Shown here one piece after another: positions 17,098-53,245 of a DNA stretch of 64,000 nucleotides. The stretch comes from Girardia tigrina. Taxonomy: Eukaryota. How positions within the stretch are numbered: position 1 is the first letter of the stretch; every line of letters starts with the position of its first letter. Under the pieces are notes generated by a model. It was not told the origin of the DNA, searched no databases, and worked only from the letters and a program-made list of their open reading frames with translations. The stretch is from NCBI GenBank assembly GCA_001938485.1, contig MQRK01191251.1:1-64000 (forward strand), read 5' to 3'. Position numbers and translations under genes: made by a program.

Positions 17098-17700
17098 AGT
17101 AGGGGAAAAATGGCATTCTCCCTCACCCCCCGGGGGGTAGCCCGTTACCATGGCAACAGTTCCGGTTACCATAGCAACGGTCACGGTTCTCTTGGCAACG
17201 GTAAGCAAGAGTGTTTTTCATTAGCAACGGATACAGTAATTCAAGACAGTTGTAACCATGGTGACGGTTACCGTATCCATAGCAACCGTCACCTTATCAC
17301 TAGGGACCGAAGAAAAAAGTGATAATCGATACTTTAAAAGTGCTAATCGATAGTGCACATTGTGCCGCACATTTAAAATGTGCTAGCACAATGCTTCTCA
17401 AGTTGCACATGTGCAAAAGTGCAAAAATCAATACATTAAATTTTTTAAAAGTACTAGTGTCAAAAATCGATTTCATGTGTTTGATGCACATTTTGATTCT
17501 CTATCTGAATGTGCAATTAGAAATTTCATATATTGATTATTTTTCTCTATAATAAGCATAATGTGCAAATTTGCACATCGATTTTAAAGATACAGGGAAG
17601 CAGAATATCAAAAATAGTGCTGATGCACTTGAATAGTAACCCATATACCTAAAAGATTCAGATTCCACATCAACATTTTCAAAAAAATGTTGAAATATTG
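17098..17700 (+). mobile_element. Unclassified non-coding TIR element, copy A (left end, X-box repeat array)
   Basis: Starts AGTAGGGGAAAAATGGCATTCTCC and is colinear over ~550 bp with 24603-25230 and 29813-30500. Confidence 0.85.
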
Positions 17701-18480: not shown

Positions 18481-19660
18481 CATTTTCTAAAAAAAAATTA
18501 AAAATTATATTACATAAATAAAAAAAAATAATACCAGTATTCTAATGTTTCTCTTGAGAATACTAGGGCATGTCCCATTCTAATGATTTCTTCGTAGTGC
18601 CATACTACCTGCATTGTTTCCACTGTCCAGGGAAGGTGTTACCGTCATGTTTTTATACCCTAATGTACTAAGTCGTGGCATTTAGCTAGATTCTCAATGT
18701 ATAGCGACATCTGCAGCTCAACCAACCAATGGAAAAAACTTATATTTTTTCATGGAGTTTTGCTCGATTGCCATCTAGCTTATAAATCAGTTAAGAGTCA
18801 CCTATACCGATATCTGATTTGTCTACAAACATTAAACTGAACCGCTGTCGCAAGCCCCCATTTGGAAGGTGGATAGTTAAACCACCATGTCGCTATCCTA
18901 GAGGTTGGCGATCCGGTTCAACATCTAATATCGTGAAGAATGACCGATTTATTGAGATTATATGCCTGCCACTTCTACTAACTTAGTTTACCGTGACTGA
19001 AGAATTTAGGGAAGCACAAATCACTACCTAACTTTACAATTCTCCAAATGTATACTACAAAAGAATCTCAATACTCAATCTAAATGTTCCAATTTAATTA
19101 TGTGAGGAGCTGAAGCTCCATTCTTTTCAAATCATTAATCGATTTCCATAATGTTGGATATTTTACTCCAAAATTATTGTTTGTTTTTTGAATGTTTTTC
19201 AATTGTGGATTGAATTTGGTTTCGACAATTTGTTTGGAGATTTGTTCGACTTTTGATTTGATGATTGTAGTAATCCGATAATCGATAGCAAACAAAATTA
19301 AAATAATTAAACGTGGGAAATTCAAATGTGGTAAAAATGTCGATGAAAATAAATTCTTCCGATTTCTTACTTTTTTATATTTTAATCGAATGAAATCGAG
19401 CGGACCAGAGCTACAACCGCATTGTTCAGCGAATCGGCATCCGGACAACACACTTGGACGCATCGAGTGGACCACCAACCGATGCGATGCCGCCAACAAG
19501 ACCAACACACTTCGGCGAGCTGCTATGGGCCGTTTGCAGCGCCGACGCGCGTATTGACTGTGTGACACTGGAACCGACCGATCATGTCCGCCAGCAACGA
19601 TTTCCCACACAATTAAGAGGTGCTGGTTGCCGCCACTGGGTTCGGCAGTCGATACCACAT

Positions 19661-19678
19661 TGGTGTCAGAAGTGGGAT
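19661..19678 (+). promoter_or_regulatory. Primer-binding site complementary to the tRNA-Leu 3' end
   Basis: TGGTGTCAGAAGTGGGAT is the reverse complement of ATCCCACTTCTGACACCA (3' end of metazoan tRNA-Leu). It lies 1 nt after the LTR-terminal CA. Confidence 0.85.
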
Positions 19679-19884
19679 CAACTGATCCAACACAGGTAAG
19701 CGATTTTGAATGTTTTTTGAAACGCGCTTGCTGCAACGCATATACACACTACAATCACCACGCATACACCGCAACAAACACTCACACGCCTCACGTTAAA
19801 CAAATTTACTCTCACACAGCACTTAACGATTAAATAAGCAAACACCACATCGAAATCACACTGAAAACAATAACTTTAGCACAC

Positions 19885-20103
19885 ACCACAAAAACAATAA
19901 ATACTGAAGGGGACATTGTCACCACACTCCAATTGTCCACCGACTGTTTAATCGAACACCTCATAAATCACCTCACTAGCCAGTCGGGACATCCAGTCAC
20001 ACTTTATAATGGATTTAAACCGTTTCGTTCTCACCTCTCTTTAAGGCAGTACGGGATCGTGACCAACACGACAATCACTTGCCACGTGGTACTTTTTGGC
20101 GGT
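19885..20103 (+). pseudogene. Ubiquitin-like domain in frame with Gag
   Basis: TTKTINTEGDIVTTLQLSTDCLIEHLINHLTSQSGHPVTLYNGFKPFRSHLSLRQYGIVTNTTITCHVVLFGG aligns by eye to ubiquitin (KT..G..TL, IE, GxP, L...K, L..Y.I...T, LxGG). Confidence 0.75.
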
Positions 20104-22310
20104 GGTGATCGCGATGAGGGACCCGAACTTTTCTCTGTAACCGGCATACCACAGCTTCAGGAGTCAATCGCAGTGCACTCATTGGCGCTATCGACGTCCC
20201 CGTTTTTACTAGATGACGACGGATCACCACGAACCTGGCTTTGACTAATGGAGTTCCGCCTGAAAACCGTGAGGAGCCAACATGTGCGGTTTCAACACCT
20301 CACAGCCGCATTACCGGTCGATCAACTGTGAGCAATAAACAAAGAACTGCCGTTAATCATGGCACATGACCGACCATACGATCAGTTGTGCCACAATTTA
20401 ATGAAGGCATACACGCAGACCTTCGATGCGCATTTCGAGCAATATTTCAGATCTCAGCCTATGGGAGACATGAAACCCACTCAGTTCCTGAACAAGATGA
20501 TAACCGATCTGCATGCGCTCAACCCGGCACTGGTCAATGATAATGCAGATCAGTGACAGTGGCGGAAGCTCTTACTCCAAGCTCTTCCGGACACACAACG
20601 ATCCATACTGGCCGCCTCCGAACAGATAGCGGCTCTNAAGCCAGTCTGACCGCTATCAGCCGCAACCGTGATTACTCAACAGTCGAAACCGAGCCGGTCA
20701 GCAATGCAGTGACCTGGGGATCGTGGAGCCATACTGCACGGATGCCAGTCGCCCGATGTCCTGGAGGGACGCAAACCCCGCTATCCGGCTCATTCATGAA
20801 GGCCACTATCGTCATGTGCTACTTTCACCGTCGATTCGGCAAAGGAGCTAAGAAATACCAACCCGGGTGCTCGTTCCCGTGCGATGGATCCGAACTGACG
20901 TATGTATTTGGCATGCCCAGTTCGGCACGGATACCAAGGAATGTGCTCCCGGGTGTGTACACTATCAGCAAAAAAAACTGGAACCACCCCTCACAATCGC
21001 AGCAAGTGAGGCAGGTAGAAGAAGCCACTGCGACCCCACACATATACAGAGCAACAATAACGTTCACCACATCCATAAACTAAACACATATAACAACAAA
21101 AATGACAATATTCACACTATAAACATCTACAACAACAACGACATTCACCATATTTACGATCCACATATACAAAGTAACTACAATAGCTACCGCCACAACC
21201 TTGACACGTACAAAAACAATACTCAGCACACATATGACTCCAATATACACCACACCAATAACAACAACACCGAACAAAACAACAGTAACACCAGCAATTA
21301 CGACAATCAAGATGACAACATGAGCAACCACACAGATAATCAAAACCACACCGAACAAAACAACAATAGCAAATCAAGCGACAATGTGCAGCAGGCCAAC
21401 TACAGCGATAATTCAACTCCAAATACATTGAAAAGCATTAATAATTCGATTATTTATTAATAAAATATTTATTCATAAATTAAATTATTCTTAAAAAAGT
21501 TATATTATTTTTACAGTTTGAATCCAATATACTTTTTATAAATTAGGATTATACTTTGAACAATAAAATTCAATTTTTGTAACGTTCGCTTGGTCTCTAA
21601 TACGTATAGATATTTGGTATTTTTCGACTAAGCTTTTTCTTGACGCCGGAAGCTAGATTATATATTTTGTCATTGACATTTAGATTTAATTTATTTATTT
21701 TTTCAAACCTATGCTTGTTATCTTCAAAATGATTTTTGGAGCATTTGTTGTTGAATATTTCTGCAAAATTTCAAAAATAATTATTTTTATAAGAAAAAAA
21801 ACACAATCTCCAATTTATATGAACATCCTTTTTCTTACACAATTGTTTATAAAAGAATAAAAAAATATTTTAATATAATAATTTTAATAAACAACAATAT
21901 ACATAAAATAATAAACAGAGTAGGTAAGAGAAAGAATAATCACTTCAGAGAATAGTGTTTGATAAAACAATAAAATAACCTTACAAAATTATCGTTCCGA
22001 TGACTGATATAGGCGCAGTTCACAAAATAGATTTTTTAGTTCTAAATATAATAACTGAATCCGGATACGGATATAAAATTGGCGAAAGTATTGTGTAAAC
22101 AGCAAATGATTAAAAAAATTGTTTACCTCAATTGTTTGGGTCGGGATATTGAATTGACGAGAATATCTTTTGAAAAGCGAAAGATTAAATATTTGTTTTG
22201 CTCATATGATGAGCGTTTTTTATTAACCGTATTCAAAGTGAGAGAACAACTATGTAAGATCGTTCGACTGATTGATATTGCTATAAAAAATTTAATATAA
22301 TTGTGGTGCT

Positions 22311-23539: not shown

Positions 23540-23862
23540 ACGGATGAAACGGACCTGACCTATCGCCACCTCTTTCAGGGAATCGGTACGTCGACGATTC
23601 AATCGAACTAGTCGAGTGGACCATCGGGACACAAGCACACGGACCGATCAAACTGATCGCCCCGCGGATGGCAACACCGAAAGGAGAACTTTTACGAGCT
23701 GGTCAGAAGACCGATATTCGCATGCACGCAGACCGGTGGCCACTGGGTCTAACCGGTTCATGAGCGCCGCAAGACAATCGGACCACTTCTCTGGCCAGCA
23801 CCTTTCCGCGCGATTAAGAGATCCTGGTTACTGAAGCTCGGTACGGTAGCCAACAGCTTCAT
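23540..23862 (+). mobile_element. Diverged LTR-like copy related to 19390-19659
   Basis: Colinear blocks CGGACC.GA.CTA, TTCAG.GAATCGG, TCGAGTGGACCA (exact), GCCAGCA and ATTAAGAG...CTGGTT are shared with the upstream LTR. Confidence 0.6.
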
Positions 23863-24602
23863 AATGATAATAAATACATATATTAGTTATTAATAAAAAT
23901 ATACTTTAATAATATTATTAAGAACACATATATGGGTTTTCACACGTTTATTTTCATGACAGTTTGAATTGTCAATGGAACGATTCTCAGCCAAGCTTTT
24001 ATTATTTGACATCTTGCTAAATTGATAATTTTTTGTTAAAACAATTATTCGAATAAATTTTCATTTTAATTGATTTTCAGATTTTATTTAAAAATTCTAC
24101 TTTTATAATTTGGGTAATAATTTTATCTAAATATTAATTTAATTTTAAAAATGATTTTATTTAAAAACATTTATTTAATTAATTTAAAAATAAGTTAAAA
24201 GTTATTTACTTTATTAAAATGTTTGATATTAAAAGTTTAAACAATTTAATATTTTAAAGTTTTAAAATTCATCAACAGTAATTTAAAATGAAAACTATGC
24301 TCGAAAAACTATTCATCGTAAACATCCAAAATACTAATTTTCCATCTGTGTAGGAAAAAGCACCACAAACCAAAATACTAAATTCCAAATACTAAACTCA
24401 ACATACAAAATTCAACGCACCAATTTCAATATTTAAAATTTAAAATAATCTCACAAATATAATGGTGGCGATAATACACCACAATTATATACATTTCATA
24501 AATGAAAACAAGAATCAGTTTAAAAACAAAATACGAAATTCCTATTATACAATTAAAGTAAGTCGTATTTTCTGTAATTTGATATTTTTATGGCAATTTG
24601 AT

Positions 24603-25271
24603 ATTACCATGGCAACGGTCGCGATCAACATAGCAACTGTTCCGGTTCACTTGGAAACGCTTCTGATTGGTTCAAATTTTTAACGGTTCCTATTGGTCCC
24701 CGATAGCGTGGAAACGCTTCTGATTGGTTCCCGGTTCCTTAGCAACGGTTCGGGTTCCCATGGCAACGGTAACCAAGGGCGTTTTTCATTATAAACCGAT
24801 ACAGTGGTTCAAGGCGGTTTGTTACCATGGTAACGGTTATCGTATCTATAGCAACCATGACCTTATAACAAAGGAGCGTAGAAAAAATGCTAATCGATCA
24901 CTGCACAGTGCCAAGATGTGCTAATCGATAGTGCACATTGTACCGCACATTTCTAATGTACTATCACAGTGCTTTTCAAGTTGCACGTGTGCAAAAATCA
25001 ATACATCAAATTTTTAAAAGTGCTAGTGCCAAAAATCAATATCATATGTTTGATGCAAATTTTGATTCTCTATCTGAATGTACAATTAGAAATTTTATAT
25101 ATTGATTAAGTTTTCCTATAATTGGCATAATGTGCAAATTTACACAAAATGCACATCGATTTTAAAGGAACAAGGAAGCAGAATAGCAAAAAGTGTCCAT
25201 GCACTTGAATAGTAACTCATATACGTACCCGGGGGAGGGTAGTGGTGGAGAACCCGCTTTTTTCCCCTACT
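24603..25271 (+). mobile_element. Unclassified TIR element, copy B (left end lost, right terminus present)
   Basis: Same X-box array and body as copies A and C. Ends ...GGAGAACCCGCTTTTTTCCCCTACT, the imperfect reverse complement of the A/C left end. Confidence 0.85.
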
Positions 25272-27307: not shown

Positions 27308-29108
27308 CAGTAAACCCTCGGTTTTTGGGCAAAAAATATCAAATTTTGCCCAAAAAACCAAAATCCACCCAAAAAATTAAAAAACATCAAAAAACTAAAT
27401 AAAATTTATGTCAATTTTTTAAAATAATCAGTTATTGTTTTCCCAAATTTAAATTCCTTCCTTAAAAAATTATTAAATTGCATTCTAAACATGATGTATT
27501 CTTTTTGAACATCAAAAGGTATATATTCAATAACATTTTCCAATTCTTTAAGTTTTTCCCATCCCAGCTTAAGTTTATCATAACGAACTTTTTCACAAAT
27601 TTCAGCTGTTCCGGTATCCTCCAGCGGTTCTGATAAATTTTCTTCATAAACCTCAACAATAACGTCCTCTATATCTTCCTCAAGCATATGAATTTTCATA
27701 TTTTGGTTGGTTTCTTCTTTTTGGGAAAATGCCTTTTGAAAACAATTAATAATCGATTCTTTGGATATTAACTCCCAGGCAATAGAAGTAAAAACAATAG
27801 CATTTTTAATATTAATGTTTTTAAATAGATCATTATTTAAATCATCTTCTTCAGTTGCCAAAAATTCAACAAGAGAATTATTGTAATGATCCTTGAATGC
27901 CTTTATCAAACCCATATCCAATGGCTGTGTTATGGCAGTTGTGTTTTTTGGCAAATATAAAAACTCTATTGCTGAAAGTTGGATATTCGGATGGGATTGT
28001 GCATTATCTAAAATAATTAAAATTTTTCTTTTCTCCACTTCCATCTCATTATTAATTTTAATTCACCATTTATCCATAATTTATTTTTATGGATTTTGGG
28101 TCAAACCCACCAAAACACCTTGGTTTTTTTTCTTTGCCTATTACTAGAGGTTCCATTTTATCTGCGCACATATTACAGCAAAGCAATATGGTAAATCTCT
28201 CTTTTATGACTTTAATACCCCTACAATCATCACCGGGTGCGACAAAACTTTTTGAGGGAGGGTTCTGATAGTTAAGTCCTATTTCATCGCAATTCCGCAC
28301 ATCCCGAGGTTCATATTGTCCACGTTTTGTTTAAAGAACATCGTGAAATTCATCTAAATGTTCCAAATCAGCAGATCTTGATTCACCGGCAATTCGTTTA
28401 AACTCCAATTTATTCCGTTTTTTAAAATTCTCCATCCACCCATTAGACGCCTTGAAGTTTTCTAATCCAAGTTTTTTTTGCAATTTTCAGAGCGATGGTT
28501 TTGATTATCATTCCATTTAATGGAATCGATGAAGATCTTAGGCGATTAAAAACTTCCAAGACCAAACCATTAAGCTCTTTATATTTATTAAATGGATTTT
28601 CTATCATAGTTTCTTCCGATTTTTGTTTGTCACATTTTCTTTCATCCCAAATGTTAAGAATATTGTCTAAATTCTTTTTAATTCTAAAAATGGCACCTTT
28701 ATTTGTAGAAAATTTTTCAATTAATTTTCTCTCTGTTGTTTTTTCATCCTTCAAACATTTCGCAATTTCAAATTTTTCGCTCGATGTTAGTTTTTTCGTC
28801 ATTGGGGATAGTGCTTTTTTTCAAAATTTAATATAAATTTAAACAAAATTTAACAAAATTTTTTAAAAAAAGCTTTTAATATTTTAAATTTGGGGAAATT
28901 TTGATACTTATTTCAGACCAAGATTAAATATTATTTTTAGGTTAAAAAATATGCCCCAAAAAACAAAACATAATTTTGCTTTTGGAATAAAACCACAATA
29001 TAAATAATATGTAATAGTGTGATTATCTTAAAACTTGTCCCAAAAACCAAAATTTCCCCAGAAATCAAGGTGCACCACCATAAAGAATGCCCCGGAAACG
29101 AGGGTAGA

Positions 29109-29151: not shown

Positions 29152-29812
29152 GTTGATGCAAAAAAATGTCGTTTTTTAACTGTCAAATTTAAATGAACAT
29201 AACTTTCTTTAGAATTAACTTTATTAGTCAAAATAAAAACCATTATATTGAACACACTATTTTTTTACAAGTTTTTTTACGAACAAGTTTTTTTATTCCG
29301 GTTTAATAAAACTCTGGAGTTCTGGAAGCGATGAAATCGTCCAAGGCTCTTTCAGTATCTCGGTGGTGTCTGAAGCATTTTTCGCGATGGAACTAGCTGA
29401 AATGTTTGAAAAGGTTATAGTCTGTAAGAGAAAGGTCTGGTGAGTACGGAGGATGAGGCAAAGTTTCATATCCCAGTTCGTTTAACTTCAGCATGGTCTT
29501 TCTTGCAACATGTGGACGTGCGTTATCATGCAAAAGAATTGGTTCCTTTCTATAAAGTAATGCATGCCGTTTTTTGTAGTTCTTGGTGCATTTTGTCAAT
29601 TTGCTGACAATACTTTTCCGCTGTAATTGTTTTGCCTTGTTTTAGGAAGCTGTAATGGATTAAACCGTTAGCGGACCACCAAACAGTCACCATGACATTT
29701 TTGGTGTAATTTTGGCTTTGGAAAAGTCTTTGGACCCTCATTGATATCCAACCACTGAGCTGAACGTCGGTGGTTGTCGTATAGGATCCATTTTTCATCG
29801 TATGTTACAATT
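29148..29812 (-). mobile_element. Mariner element, 3' half (catalytic domain), truncated by copy C insertion
   Basis: TIR TTAGGTTGATGCAAAAA at 29148. Peptides IVTYDEKWILYDN, VMVTVWWS, LLHDNARPH and HPPYSPDLSLTDY; frameshifted. Confidence 0.92.
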
Positions 29813-30843
29813 AGTAGGGGGAAAATGGGCATTCTTCCTCAAACCCCGGAGGGGGGTAGCCCGTTGCCATGGCAACGGTCGAGGTTACCATAGCAACGGT
29901 CGCGATCACCCTAGCAACGGCCCCGGTTACCATAGCAACGGTTCTGGTTCACTTGGTAACGGTAACAAGGTCTTAGTTACCATAGCAACGGTAGCCAAGG
30001 GACGTTTTTCATTAGCAACGGATACAGTGATTCAAGGCGGTTGTAACCATGATAACGGTTACCGTATCCATAGCAACCGAAGAAAAAAGTGCTAATCGAT
30101 CGCTGCACAGTGCACAAATGTGCTAATTGATACTTTTAAAGTGCTAATCGATAGTGCACATTGTGCCGCACATTTATAATGTACTAGAACAGTGCTTTTC
30201 AAGCTGCACATGTGCAAAAGTGCAAAATTCAATTCATAAAATTTTTTAAAAGTACTAGGGTCAAAAATCGATATTATATGTTTGATGCACATTTTGATTC
30301 TCTATCTTAATATGCAATTAGAAATTTCATATATTGATTACTTTTTCCTATAATTAACATAATGTGAAAATTTACACAAAATGCACATCAATTTTAGAAG
30401 CACAAGGAAGCAGAATATCAAAAAAGTGCTCATGCACTTGAATAGTAATTTTTGTACGTAAATACAGATTCCACATCAACATTTTCGAAAAAATGCTGAT
30501 AAATTTCGAACATTTCTGAAATTCTCAAAAAAGTGCTCAAAATCTATTTTTTCATAGATATAAAACACATATGATATATGTGTGTTGTTTACCATCAAAC
30601 AATACCTCATAAATTTCCTAATGTACACAAGTATAATCACAAGTACCATGGTACCGTAAACAAGATACATAACTTTTTCTTTTACATGTTAAAACGACTT
30701 GTAAAAACTCCTGTTGTACTTCAAACATGCTTCAATATAATACATAACATCTGCATAATCATCTAATTCACCTGAGCCTAAGCATCGCCTAGGCATCAAC
30801 CATCAAAAGTATCATGGTTACCGTAACCATGATACATAACATT

Positions 30844-52856: not shown

Positions 52857-53245
52857 TTAATAACAACACTCATCCATTTAAAAACATATTTCAAGACAAT
52901 ATATTTCGACGGATCTACCGTCATCTTCAGGTCACTAATTAATAATCAATTCACCTGAATGTAAATACAAAAGTGACGATTATGTAATCGATTGCATGAA
53001 ATCATGCTAATCAAAAATTCTCGATATGCTGGTTGAGACTGCCTATGTTCAATGTTCAATCGACAGTCTCAACCAGCTTATTGAGAATTTTTGATTAGCA
53101 TGATTTCATGCAATCGATTACATAATCATCATTTTTATATTTACATCCAGGTGAATTGATTATTAATTAGCGACCTGAAGATGACGGTATATCCGTCGAA
53201 CAAATATCTTGAAATATATTTTTAATGGATGAGTGTTGTTATTAA
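52857..53245. repeat. Long inverted repeat (~185-bp arms, 22-nt spacer), inverted Penelope-type termini
   Basis: 52857-53041 is the reverse complement of 53064-53245 with scattered mismatches. Each arm has a hammerhead core. Confidence 0.92.
52895..52933 (-). ncRNA. Minimal hammerhead ribozyme (mirror copy at 53172-53208 on + has GAAA changed to GAAC)
   Basis: GAC CUGAAGA U GACGG uagau CCGUC GAAAUAUAUU^ GUC. Core intact, 3-bp stem I, 5-bp stem II and palindromic AUAUAU stem III. Confidence 0.65.

Follow-up and report, generated by a model that had tools for sequence, protein, structure and literature searches.

A Gypsy-type LTR retrotransposon family of Girardia tigrina with a di-glycine-ended ubiquitin-like domain ahead of Gag

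The locus and its element

The window, i.e., the whole 64,000-nucleotide stretch of Girardia tigrina DNA analysed here, belongs to an AT-rich host genome of 1.43 Gb and contains a dead, 3′-truncated copy of a Gypsy LTR retrotransposon (Table 1). A first-pass annotation had described an LTR and a tRNA-Leu primer binding site (PBS), followed by one reading frame in which a ubiquitin-like domain (Ubl) of about 73 residues with an LFGG end continues into Gag; all of these parts are recovered. Paired and solo LTRs elsewhere in the genome define where the 5′ LTR (TGT...ACA) begins and ends. Its first ~125 bp are AT-rich, and the remainder is GC-rich and is read in the Gag frame. The PBS is complementary to the 3′ end of the host tRNA-Leu(CAG), for which six pattern matches were obtained, two of them called as tRNA genes. 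The Ubl stretch is in frame with a DUF7041-like capsid region, the Pfam match of which (E 0.003) misses the curated cut-off. The copy is dead, as had been stated: It carries five in-frame stops and lacks ~165 bp that are present in all four copies compared. Both CHCC knuckles noted earlier are present, but here they stand in separate frames, and the first departs from the consensus in one ligand. Neither pol nor a 3′ LTR was found for this element in the 64-kb window.

Table 1. Features of the retrotransposon copy in the window
Feature	Coordinates	Strand	Remarks
5′ LTR (TGTAGT...ACCACA)	19266..19659	+	ends set against the LTR pairs of L042, L067 and L072 and against solo LTRs
Primer binding site, complementary to tRNA-Leu(CAG) 3′ end plus CCA	19661..19678	+	
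Gag-frame leader from LTR-internal ATG over PBS to Ubl, 165 codons	19390..19884	+	stops at 19555 and 19831
Splice-donor-like CAG/GTAAGC, falling between codons of the Gag frame	19693..19701	+	
Ubiquitin-like (β-grasp) domain, 73 codons, LFGG end; core and Lys48 equivalent retained, Ile44 patch lost	19885..20103	+	
Di-glycine, predicted DUB cleavage site	20098..20103	+	a third Gly and an acidic linker follow
Gag capsid region (DUF7041-like)	20203..20620	+	stops at 20242, 20329 and 20554; deletion junction near 20620
First CX2HX9CX3C knuckle	20817..20870	+	Tyr as third ligand in this copy
Second CX2HX9CX3C knuckle	20903..20956	+	frame differs from that of the first
Asn/His-rich tail, also in the pol-less copies of the family	21010..21426	+	element stops here

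The proposal that a start codon was mutated to ATA at 19834 does not hold. Among 26 close copies, this codon is ATA in 24, GTA in one, deleted in one, and ATG in none; the codon preceding it is sense in 23 of the 26.

The window carries a number of further features. Downstream of the element, a GC-rich stretch at 23559–23850 looks by eye like a related LTR end, which BLAST against the window LTR and other copies did not confirm. Three copies of a repeat with a 21-bp unit (17132–17700, 24591–25230, and 29851–30505) contain the palindromic motif GTT(A/G)CCATGG(C/T)AAC, which we take to resemble RFX X-boxes. Transposase fragments of DDE_1 (pogo/Tigger-like) and mariner-like type lie on the minus strand at 27406–28820 and 29393–29804. 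A near-perfect hairpin at 52905–53200 has 142-nt arms that are 93% complementary and a 12-nt loop.

The ubiquitin-like domain and its relatives

Taken by itself, the Ubl of the window offers modest evidence for its fold. It has no match in Pfam, and phmmer relates it to designed ubiquitins at E 0.39. The AlphaFold models feature the β-grasp order of elements at a pLDDT of 56 and 65; for the latter, ubiquitin-family chains are the top rows, with a best Foldseek E of 0.008 and a VIA Z of 4.8. ESM Atlas yields 0.92 to ubiquitin families. The β-grasp fold expected from structure prediction is hence seen in the order of elements and in the ranking, but at modest pLDDT, and fold and ubiquitin homology follow with moderate strength from the window sequence alone.

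The assignment turns firm through relatives, as judged by sequence comparison. A homology search with a single protein found no relative. A profile from 16 natural copies, run against 1.84 billion representatives, retrieved 23 proteins—two of them unrelated repeat proteins—with the best spanning both Ubl and capsid at E 2e-26. Some relatives carry a Pfam ubiquitin match at E about 1e-22, and a profile without the near-canonical members still retrieves single chains of the ubiquitin family, with E values of 1e-7 to 1e-8. A search with P0008 was swamped by polyubiquitin, the viral contigs searched contained no relative, and ESM Atlas returned DUF7041 clusters only (0.85) for one Ubl-Gag region from outside the genome. 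FUBI as the source of the Ubl is unsupported: Ubiquitin and ISG15 rank first in the profile searches.

The genome contains at least 152 matches (908 candidates, 150 scored). The family shows the features of Ty3/Gypsy elements: TG...CA LTRs, a PBS, a polypurine tract, and the pol order PR-RT-RH-IN; paired LTRs, the PPT-like tract, and pol were read in other copies, the window holding a 5′ LTR only. PR-RT-RH-IN is encoded by L031–L033 in this genome and likewise by L165 and L169 outside it. A second search found family C (L140–L159), which is younger, with LTR pairs 94 to 99.6% identical. Its elements are mostly short, and their leaders consist of shared modules of up to 500 codons. The Ubl profile matches 40 of the 40 family loci fetched and none of the 30 top-ranking ordinary DUF7041 loci, so that the domain is found family-wide, as the first-pass annotation had wished to see checked. 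The dN/dS ratios that it had likewise suggested point to purifying selection, at about 0.23 to 0.28 between and within diverged families. Specifically, pairwise Ubl dN/dS amounts to 0.75 in family A (13 copies, mostly decay), 0.66 in family B (7 copies), and 0.28 in family C (19 copies; capsid 0.18). The net value between families A and B is 0.23 (95% 0.12–0.45; 249 of 300 bootstraps defined), several other between-family contrasts having saturated dS. For two outside pairs, the Ubl ratios are 0.48 and 0.54 and the capsid ratios 0.10 and 0.03. Taken together, the Ubl is a family-level feature under purifying selection.

In a quick capsid tree—long branches join near its root, and three own copies including that of the window were excluded—33 Ubl-bearing Gags are split from 8 Gags without Ubl by a branch with 100% SH-aLRT. 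Nested within it are four Gags with near-canonical ubiquitin (49–58 of 76 residues identical). These do not form a single clade (AU p 0.0014, for a group partly chosen once the first tree was seen). Their ubiquitins have mostly lost Met1, which L165 retains. L162 and L165 are close by capsid (dN 0.115), and their Ubls are saturated. Because the near-canonical members are nested and not one clade, ubiquitin appears to have been recaptured, or swapped among Gags; alternatively, a single capture may have been followed by swaps between families.

Leader, di-glycine, and the N-terminus of Gag

The Ubl had been taken to be N-terminal. However, the frame extends back over the PBS to an ATG within the LTR, and since it is open across this region in other copies, the Ubl appears to be internal, behind an unconserved leader of about 80 to 500 residues. 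In the window frame, the first Met 3′ of the PBS lies within the capsid motif. With four copies set aside for their indels, 13 family-A LTR copies keep the frame in register, and 8 of these are open in the Gag frame, which carries a mean of 0.38 stops versus 1.5 and 1.3 in the other frames. By eye, two further, unrelated LTR types of the family also have an in-frame Met and an open frame. Five family C copies, chosen for open frames out of 20 fetched, run for 80 to 502 codons without a stop from PBS to Ubl, and in three of these an ATG arises at the LTR/PBS junction. A TTG or ATG overlaps the PBS. Outside the genome, 22 metagenome loci were obtained, of which the 15 longest were read and 12 have a PBS before gag. 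In nine of the 12, an open frame of 77 to 198 codons starts at a Met 31 to 84 codons 5′ of the PBS and reaches the Ubl; the remaining three lack such a frame. The sequence 5′ of the PBS in these loci is presumably LTR and presumably translated. The nine frames cross the PBS in all three phases, and leaders share neither length nor sequence nor frame over the PBS. For the part after the PBS, dN/dS is 0.35 in one pair. A transmembrane, glyco-Gag-like leader was considered and rejected, the shifted frame being equally or more hydrophobic in 8 of the 9 outside leaders. Host fragments occur in this region: L144 of family C carries an INTS7 fragment 5′ of the PBS, and one outside Gypsy element a histone H2A fragment in its leader. 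A donor-like AG/GTAAG or GTATG 3′ of the PBS is kept in the family and in diverged sister subfamilies of this genome; the pattern as searched occurs in 0 of 8 family C and 0 of 11 outside elements.

The junction between Ubl and Gag is conserved. Every outside protein that extends 40 residues or more beyond the capsid motif on its N-terminal side, 32 of 32, has a GG 15 to 52 residues ahead of this motif, versus 4 of 325 control windows. The GG column is invariant in a 14-sequence alignment at 24 to 95% identity, and Gly is retained via differing codons in three families of this genome. Certain family C copies end their Ubl in VG or GS. Across 37 Ubls, the windows of which were picked by tail motif, the core is retained, with Lys48 in 31 and Arg72 in 25; the aliphatic residue 73 in 37 of 37 is a consequence of this choice of windows. 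Ile44 remains in 5, Leu8 in 4, and Arg42 in 5 of the 37. Most Ubls are identical to ubiquitin at 11 to 21 of 76 positions and lack Arg42, Ile44, and often Arg74; in the window family, GG is usually preceded by a nonpolar residue, and ubiquitin position 49 is usually Pro. The di-glycine closes the Ubl as in a linear fusion, and the residue that follows is S/G/T/M/A in 33 of 37 and never Pro, bulky, or basic. These small residues are stabilising under the N-end rule, and Pro after GG blocks deubiquitinases (DUBs). In the outside Gags P0002 and P0004, Met directly follows GG, possibly as the original Gag start with ubiquitin inserted ahead of it. The Ile44 patch is the site for ubiquitin receptors, and the retention of the DUB-facing GG tail together with the loss of this patch favours cleavage over display towards ESCRT.

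Usually, the N-terminus of Gag stems from a start codon or from cleavage by the protease of the element itself. For this family, translation probably starts in the LTR, the leader would mainly be kept open, and a host DUB would cut after Ubl-GG and free a Gag with a uniform N-terminus. Translation would begin at the LTR ATG or the LTR/PBS junction and read through the RNA-signal region; a USP-type enzyme would cleave after GG, leaving Gag with a uniform small N-terminal residue, and the leader-Ubl piece would be thrown away or degraded. The 5′ region would thereby be free to vary in length and to absorb scraps of host mRNA with capsid assembly unharmed. Host DUB cleavage as the origin of the Gag N-terminus, suggested in the first-pass annotation, is the best reading of the layout. 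A tolerant DUB must be assumed, because most USPs are excluded, according to the available text of PMC10611586, where the Ile44 patch is altered and GG follows a nonpolar residue, as in these Ubls. If true, particle formation would depend on host deubiquitinases—a new host–transposon interface—and the tolerance of in-frame host fragments in the 5′ region would be accounted for.

Other readings of the same layout are less convincing. The released leader-Ubl-GG might itself matter, either as a conjugatable modifier or as a decoy that interferes with the host's ubiquitin system, with the host scraps in the leader as functional cargo. Cleavage would indeed leave a free C-terminal GG, Lys48 has an equivalent in most Ubls, near-canonical ubiquitin was taken up repeatedly, and the in-frame host fragments together with the leader dN/dS of the one pair fit this reading as well. 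We nevertheless regard it as unlikely: The leaders have no common sequence, length, or PBS frame, the cargo consists of fragments, and the surface residues on which E1 and ubiquitin receptors act are mostly gone.

Improbable, too, is that the Ubl remains attached to Gag, whether to assist folding or as a displayed mimic for ESCRT, proteasome shuttles, or a chromatin reader. In retroviruses, ubiquitin connects Gag with budding, and the retained fold and Lys48 would suit such a role. However, an uncut fusion would leave 80 to 500 unrelated residues on the capsid, and GG and tail are the best-conserved part. In addition, no env was seen in the elements read. The loss of the Ile44/Leu8 patch speaks against capsid display for ESCRT, as proposed earlier.

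It is very doubtful that a spliced RNA, or a near-cognate start near the Ubl, gives rise to Gag, with the LTR-started leader as a minor route. The donor-like site kept after the PBS in diverged subfamilies of this genome, the TTG or ATG at the PBS, and the Met after GG in two outside Gags speak for it; yet the donor pattern is absent from the family C and outside elements searched, leaders open over hundreds of codons would be left unexplained, and the start would be altered but not the role of GG. That the Ubl is a host fragment inserted once or carried neutrally, as the dead window copy and the lack of a Pfam match to its Ubl might suggest and as had been named as a possible refutation, deserves next to no credence in view of the matches across the genome, the Ubl profile match in every family locus fetched and in none of the 30 ordinary DUF7041 loci, the purifying selection, and the clade-wide GG.

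Known systems and a second element family

The closest parallel is found in cytopathogenic pestiviruses with ubiquitin insertions: BVDV Osloss, CP1, and CP Rit (available text of PMC8310069). There, captured host ubiquitin is embedded in a polyprotein, and cutting behind it by host hydrolases yields an authentic N-terminus, as is predicted here; also, the ubiquitin at times brings along a piece of the host protein to which it had been fused and lacks its first residues (same text). Unlike the Gypsy case, these insertions are described there as sporadic recombination events in an RNA virus that free NS3, whereas the Gypsy Ubl is fixed across a lineage, stands ahead of Gag, and has both drifted to about 20% identity and been renewed. 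FUBI-eS30 and SDE2 resemble the family in having a divergent GG-ended Ubl, cut by particular USPs (available text of PMC8354635, PMC10611586, and PMC13572447), a step that is only predicted here. FUBI agrees with the usual state of the window family at two sites, having a nonpolar residue ahead of GG and a Pro at position 49 of ubiquitin, going by the same partial texts. However, FUBI-eS30 and SDE2 are host genes with an N-terminal Ubl, while the Gypsy Ubl is internal, follows a variable leader, and is part of a mobile element. With Ubls that range from near-canonical ubiquitin down to about 15% identity, the family lends itself to the question of what DUBs need to cut.

Among retrotransposons, the CsRn1 clade (PwRn1, AgCR) has in common with the element the CX2HX9CX3C motif, a DUF7041-type capsid, a DTG protease, and gag and pol in separate frames, according to the available text of PMC2582038. 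The earlier label of a CsRn1-type Gag stands for the Gag motif, which occurs twice, but not for the PBS, which matches tRNA-Leu and not the tRNA-Trp of the clade; two knuckles and the leader-Ubl-GG ahead of Gag are further differences (same text). The single-knuckle Gags retrieved begin with a Met a short way ahead of the capsid motif and have no Ubl. By its PBS, the element is classed as CsRn1-related and not as a CsRn1 member, the tree built being one of capsid sequences. Burro/GYPSM1 also features a Gypsy polyprotein with a ubiquitin/SUMO-like domain (PMC6431247). In Burro, this domain is one of the cargo domains that follow a CCHC Gag within an ORF of ~5,000 residues, and no role in GG processing is given (PMC6431247, section 7); the present elements have the Ubl before a CHCC Gag and a size of about 3 to 5.5 kb. 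A possible entry route for host scraps and fresh ubiquitin is template switching, as in LTR-mediated capture of host mRNA, which yields chimeric retrocopies but, in the available text of PMC5131818, no conserved cleavable junction that shields Gag. No account of a Ubl-GG before a retrotransposon Gag turned up among the titles and abstract openings that searches of the open literature returned; prior annotation, for instance in Repbase, Dfam, GyDB, or subscription journals, is possible. A term search on this theme had no match in the available text of PMC13524379.

A second occurrence of the layout came from a genome-wide search for the ubiquitin family, which yielded many ubiquitins inside long frames. 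Most of the 20 such loci fetched (L217–L236) read as leader, ubiquitin ending in LRLCGG or LRLRGG, and Gag. Pfam, run on 7 of the 20, detected DUF1759 in three and RT in one; the leaders of these seven contain fragments of Hsp90, PRMT, Hsp70, or RNA polymerase N. DUF1759 is taken by us to indicate BEL/Pao. The leader-ubiquitin-Gag layout is present in a BEL/Pao-type family unrelated to the Gypsy one in the same genome. At even odds, in our estimate, two unrelated LTR superfamilies independently made captured ubiquitin a host-cleaved insulator before Gag, with the 5′ end serving as a cargo bay in which pieces of host mRNA are sampled in frame, and with ubiquitin renewed repeatedly while drifting. 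If true, these elements would require host DUBs, through which they might also be controlled. In L217–L236, the ubiquitin is near-canonical with an LRLCGG end in many loci, and repeat pairs are up to 100% identical.
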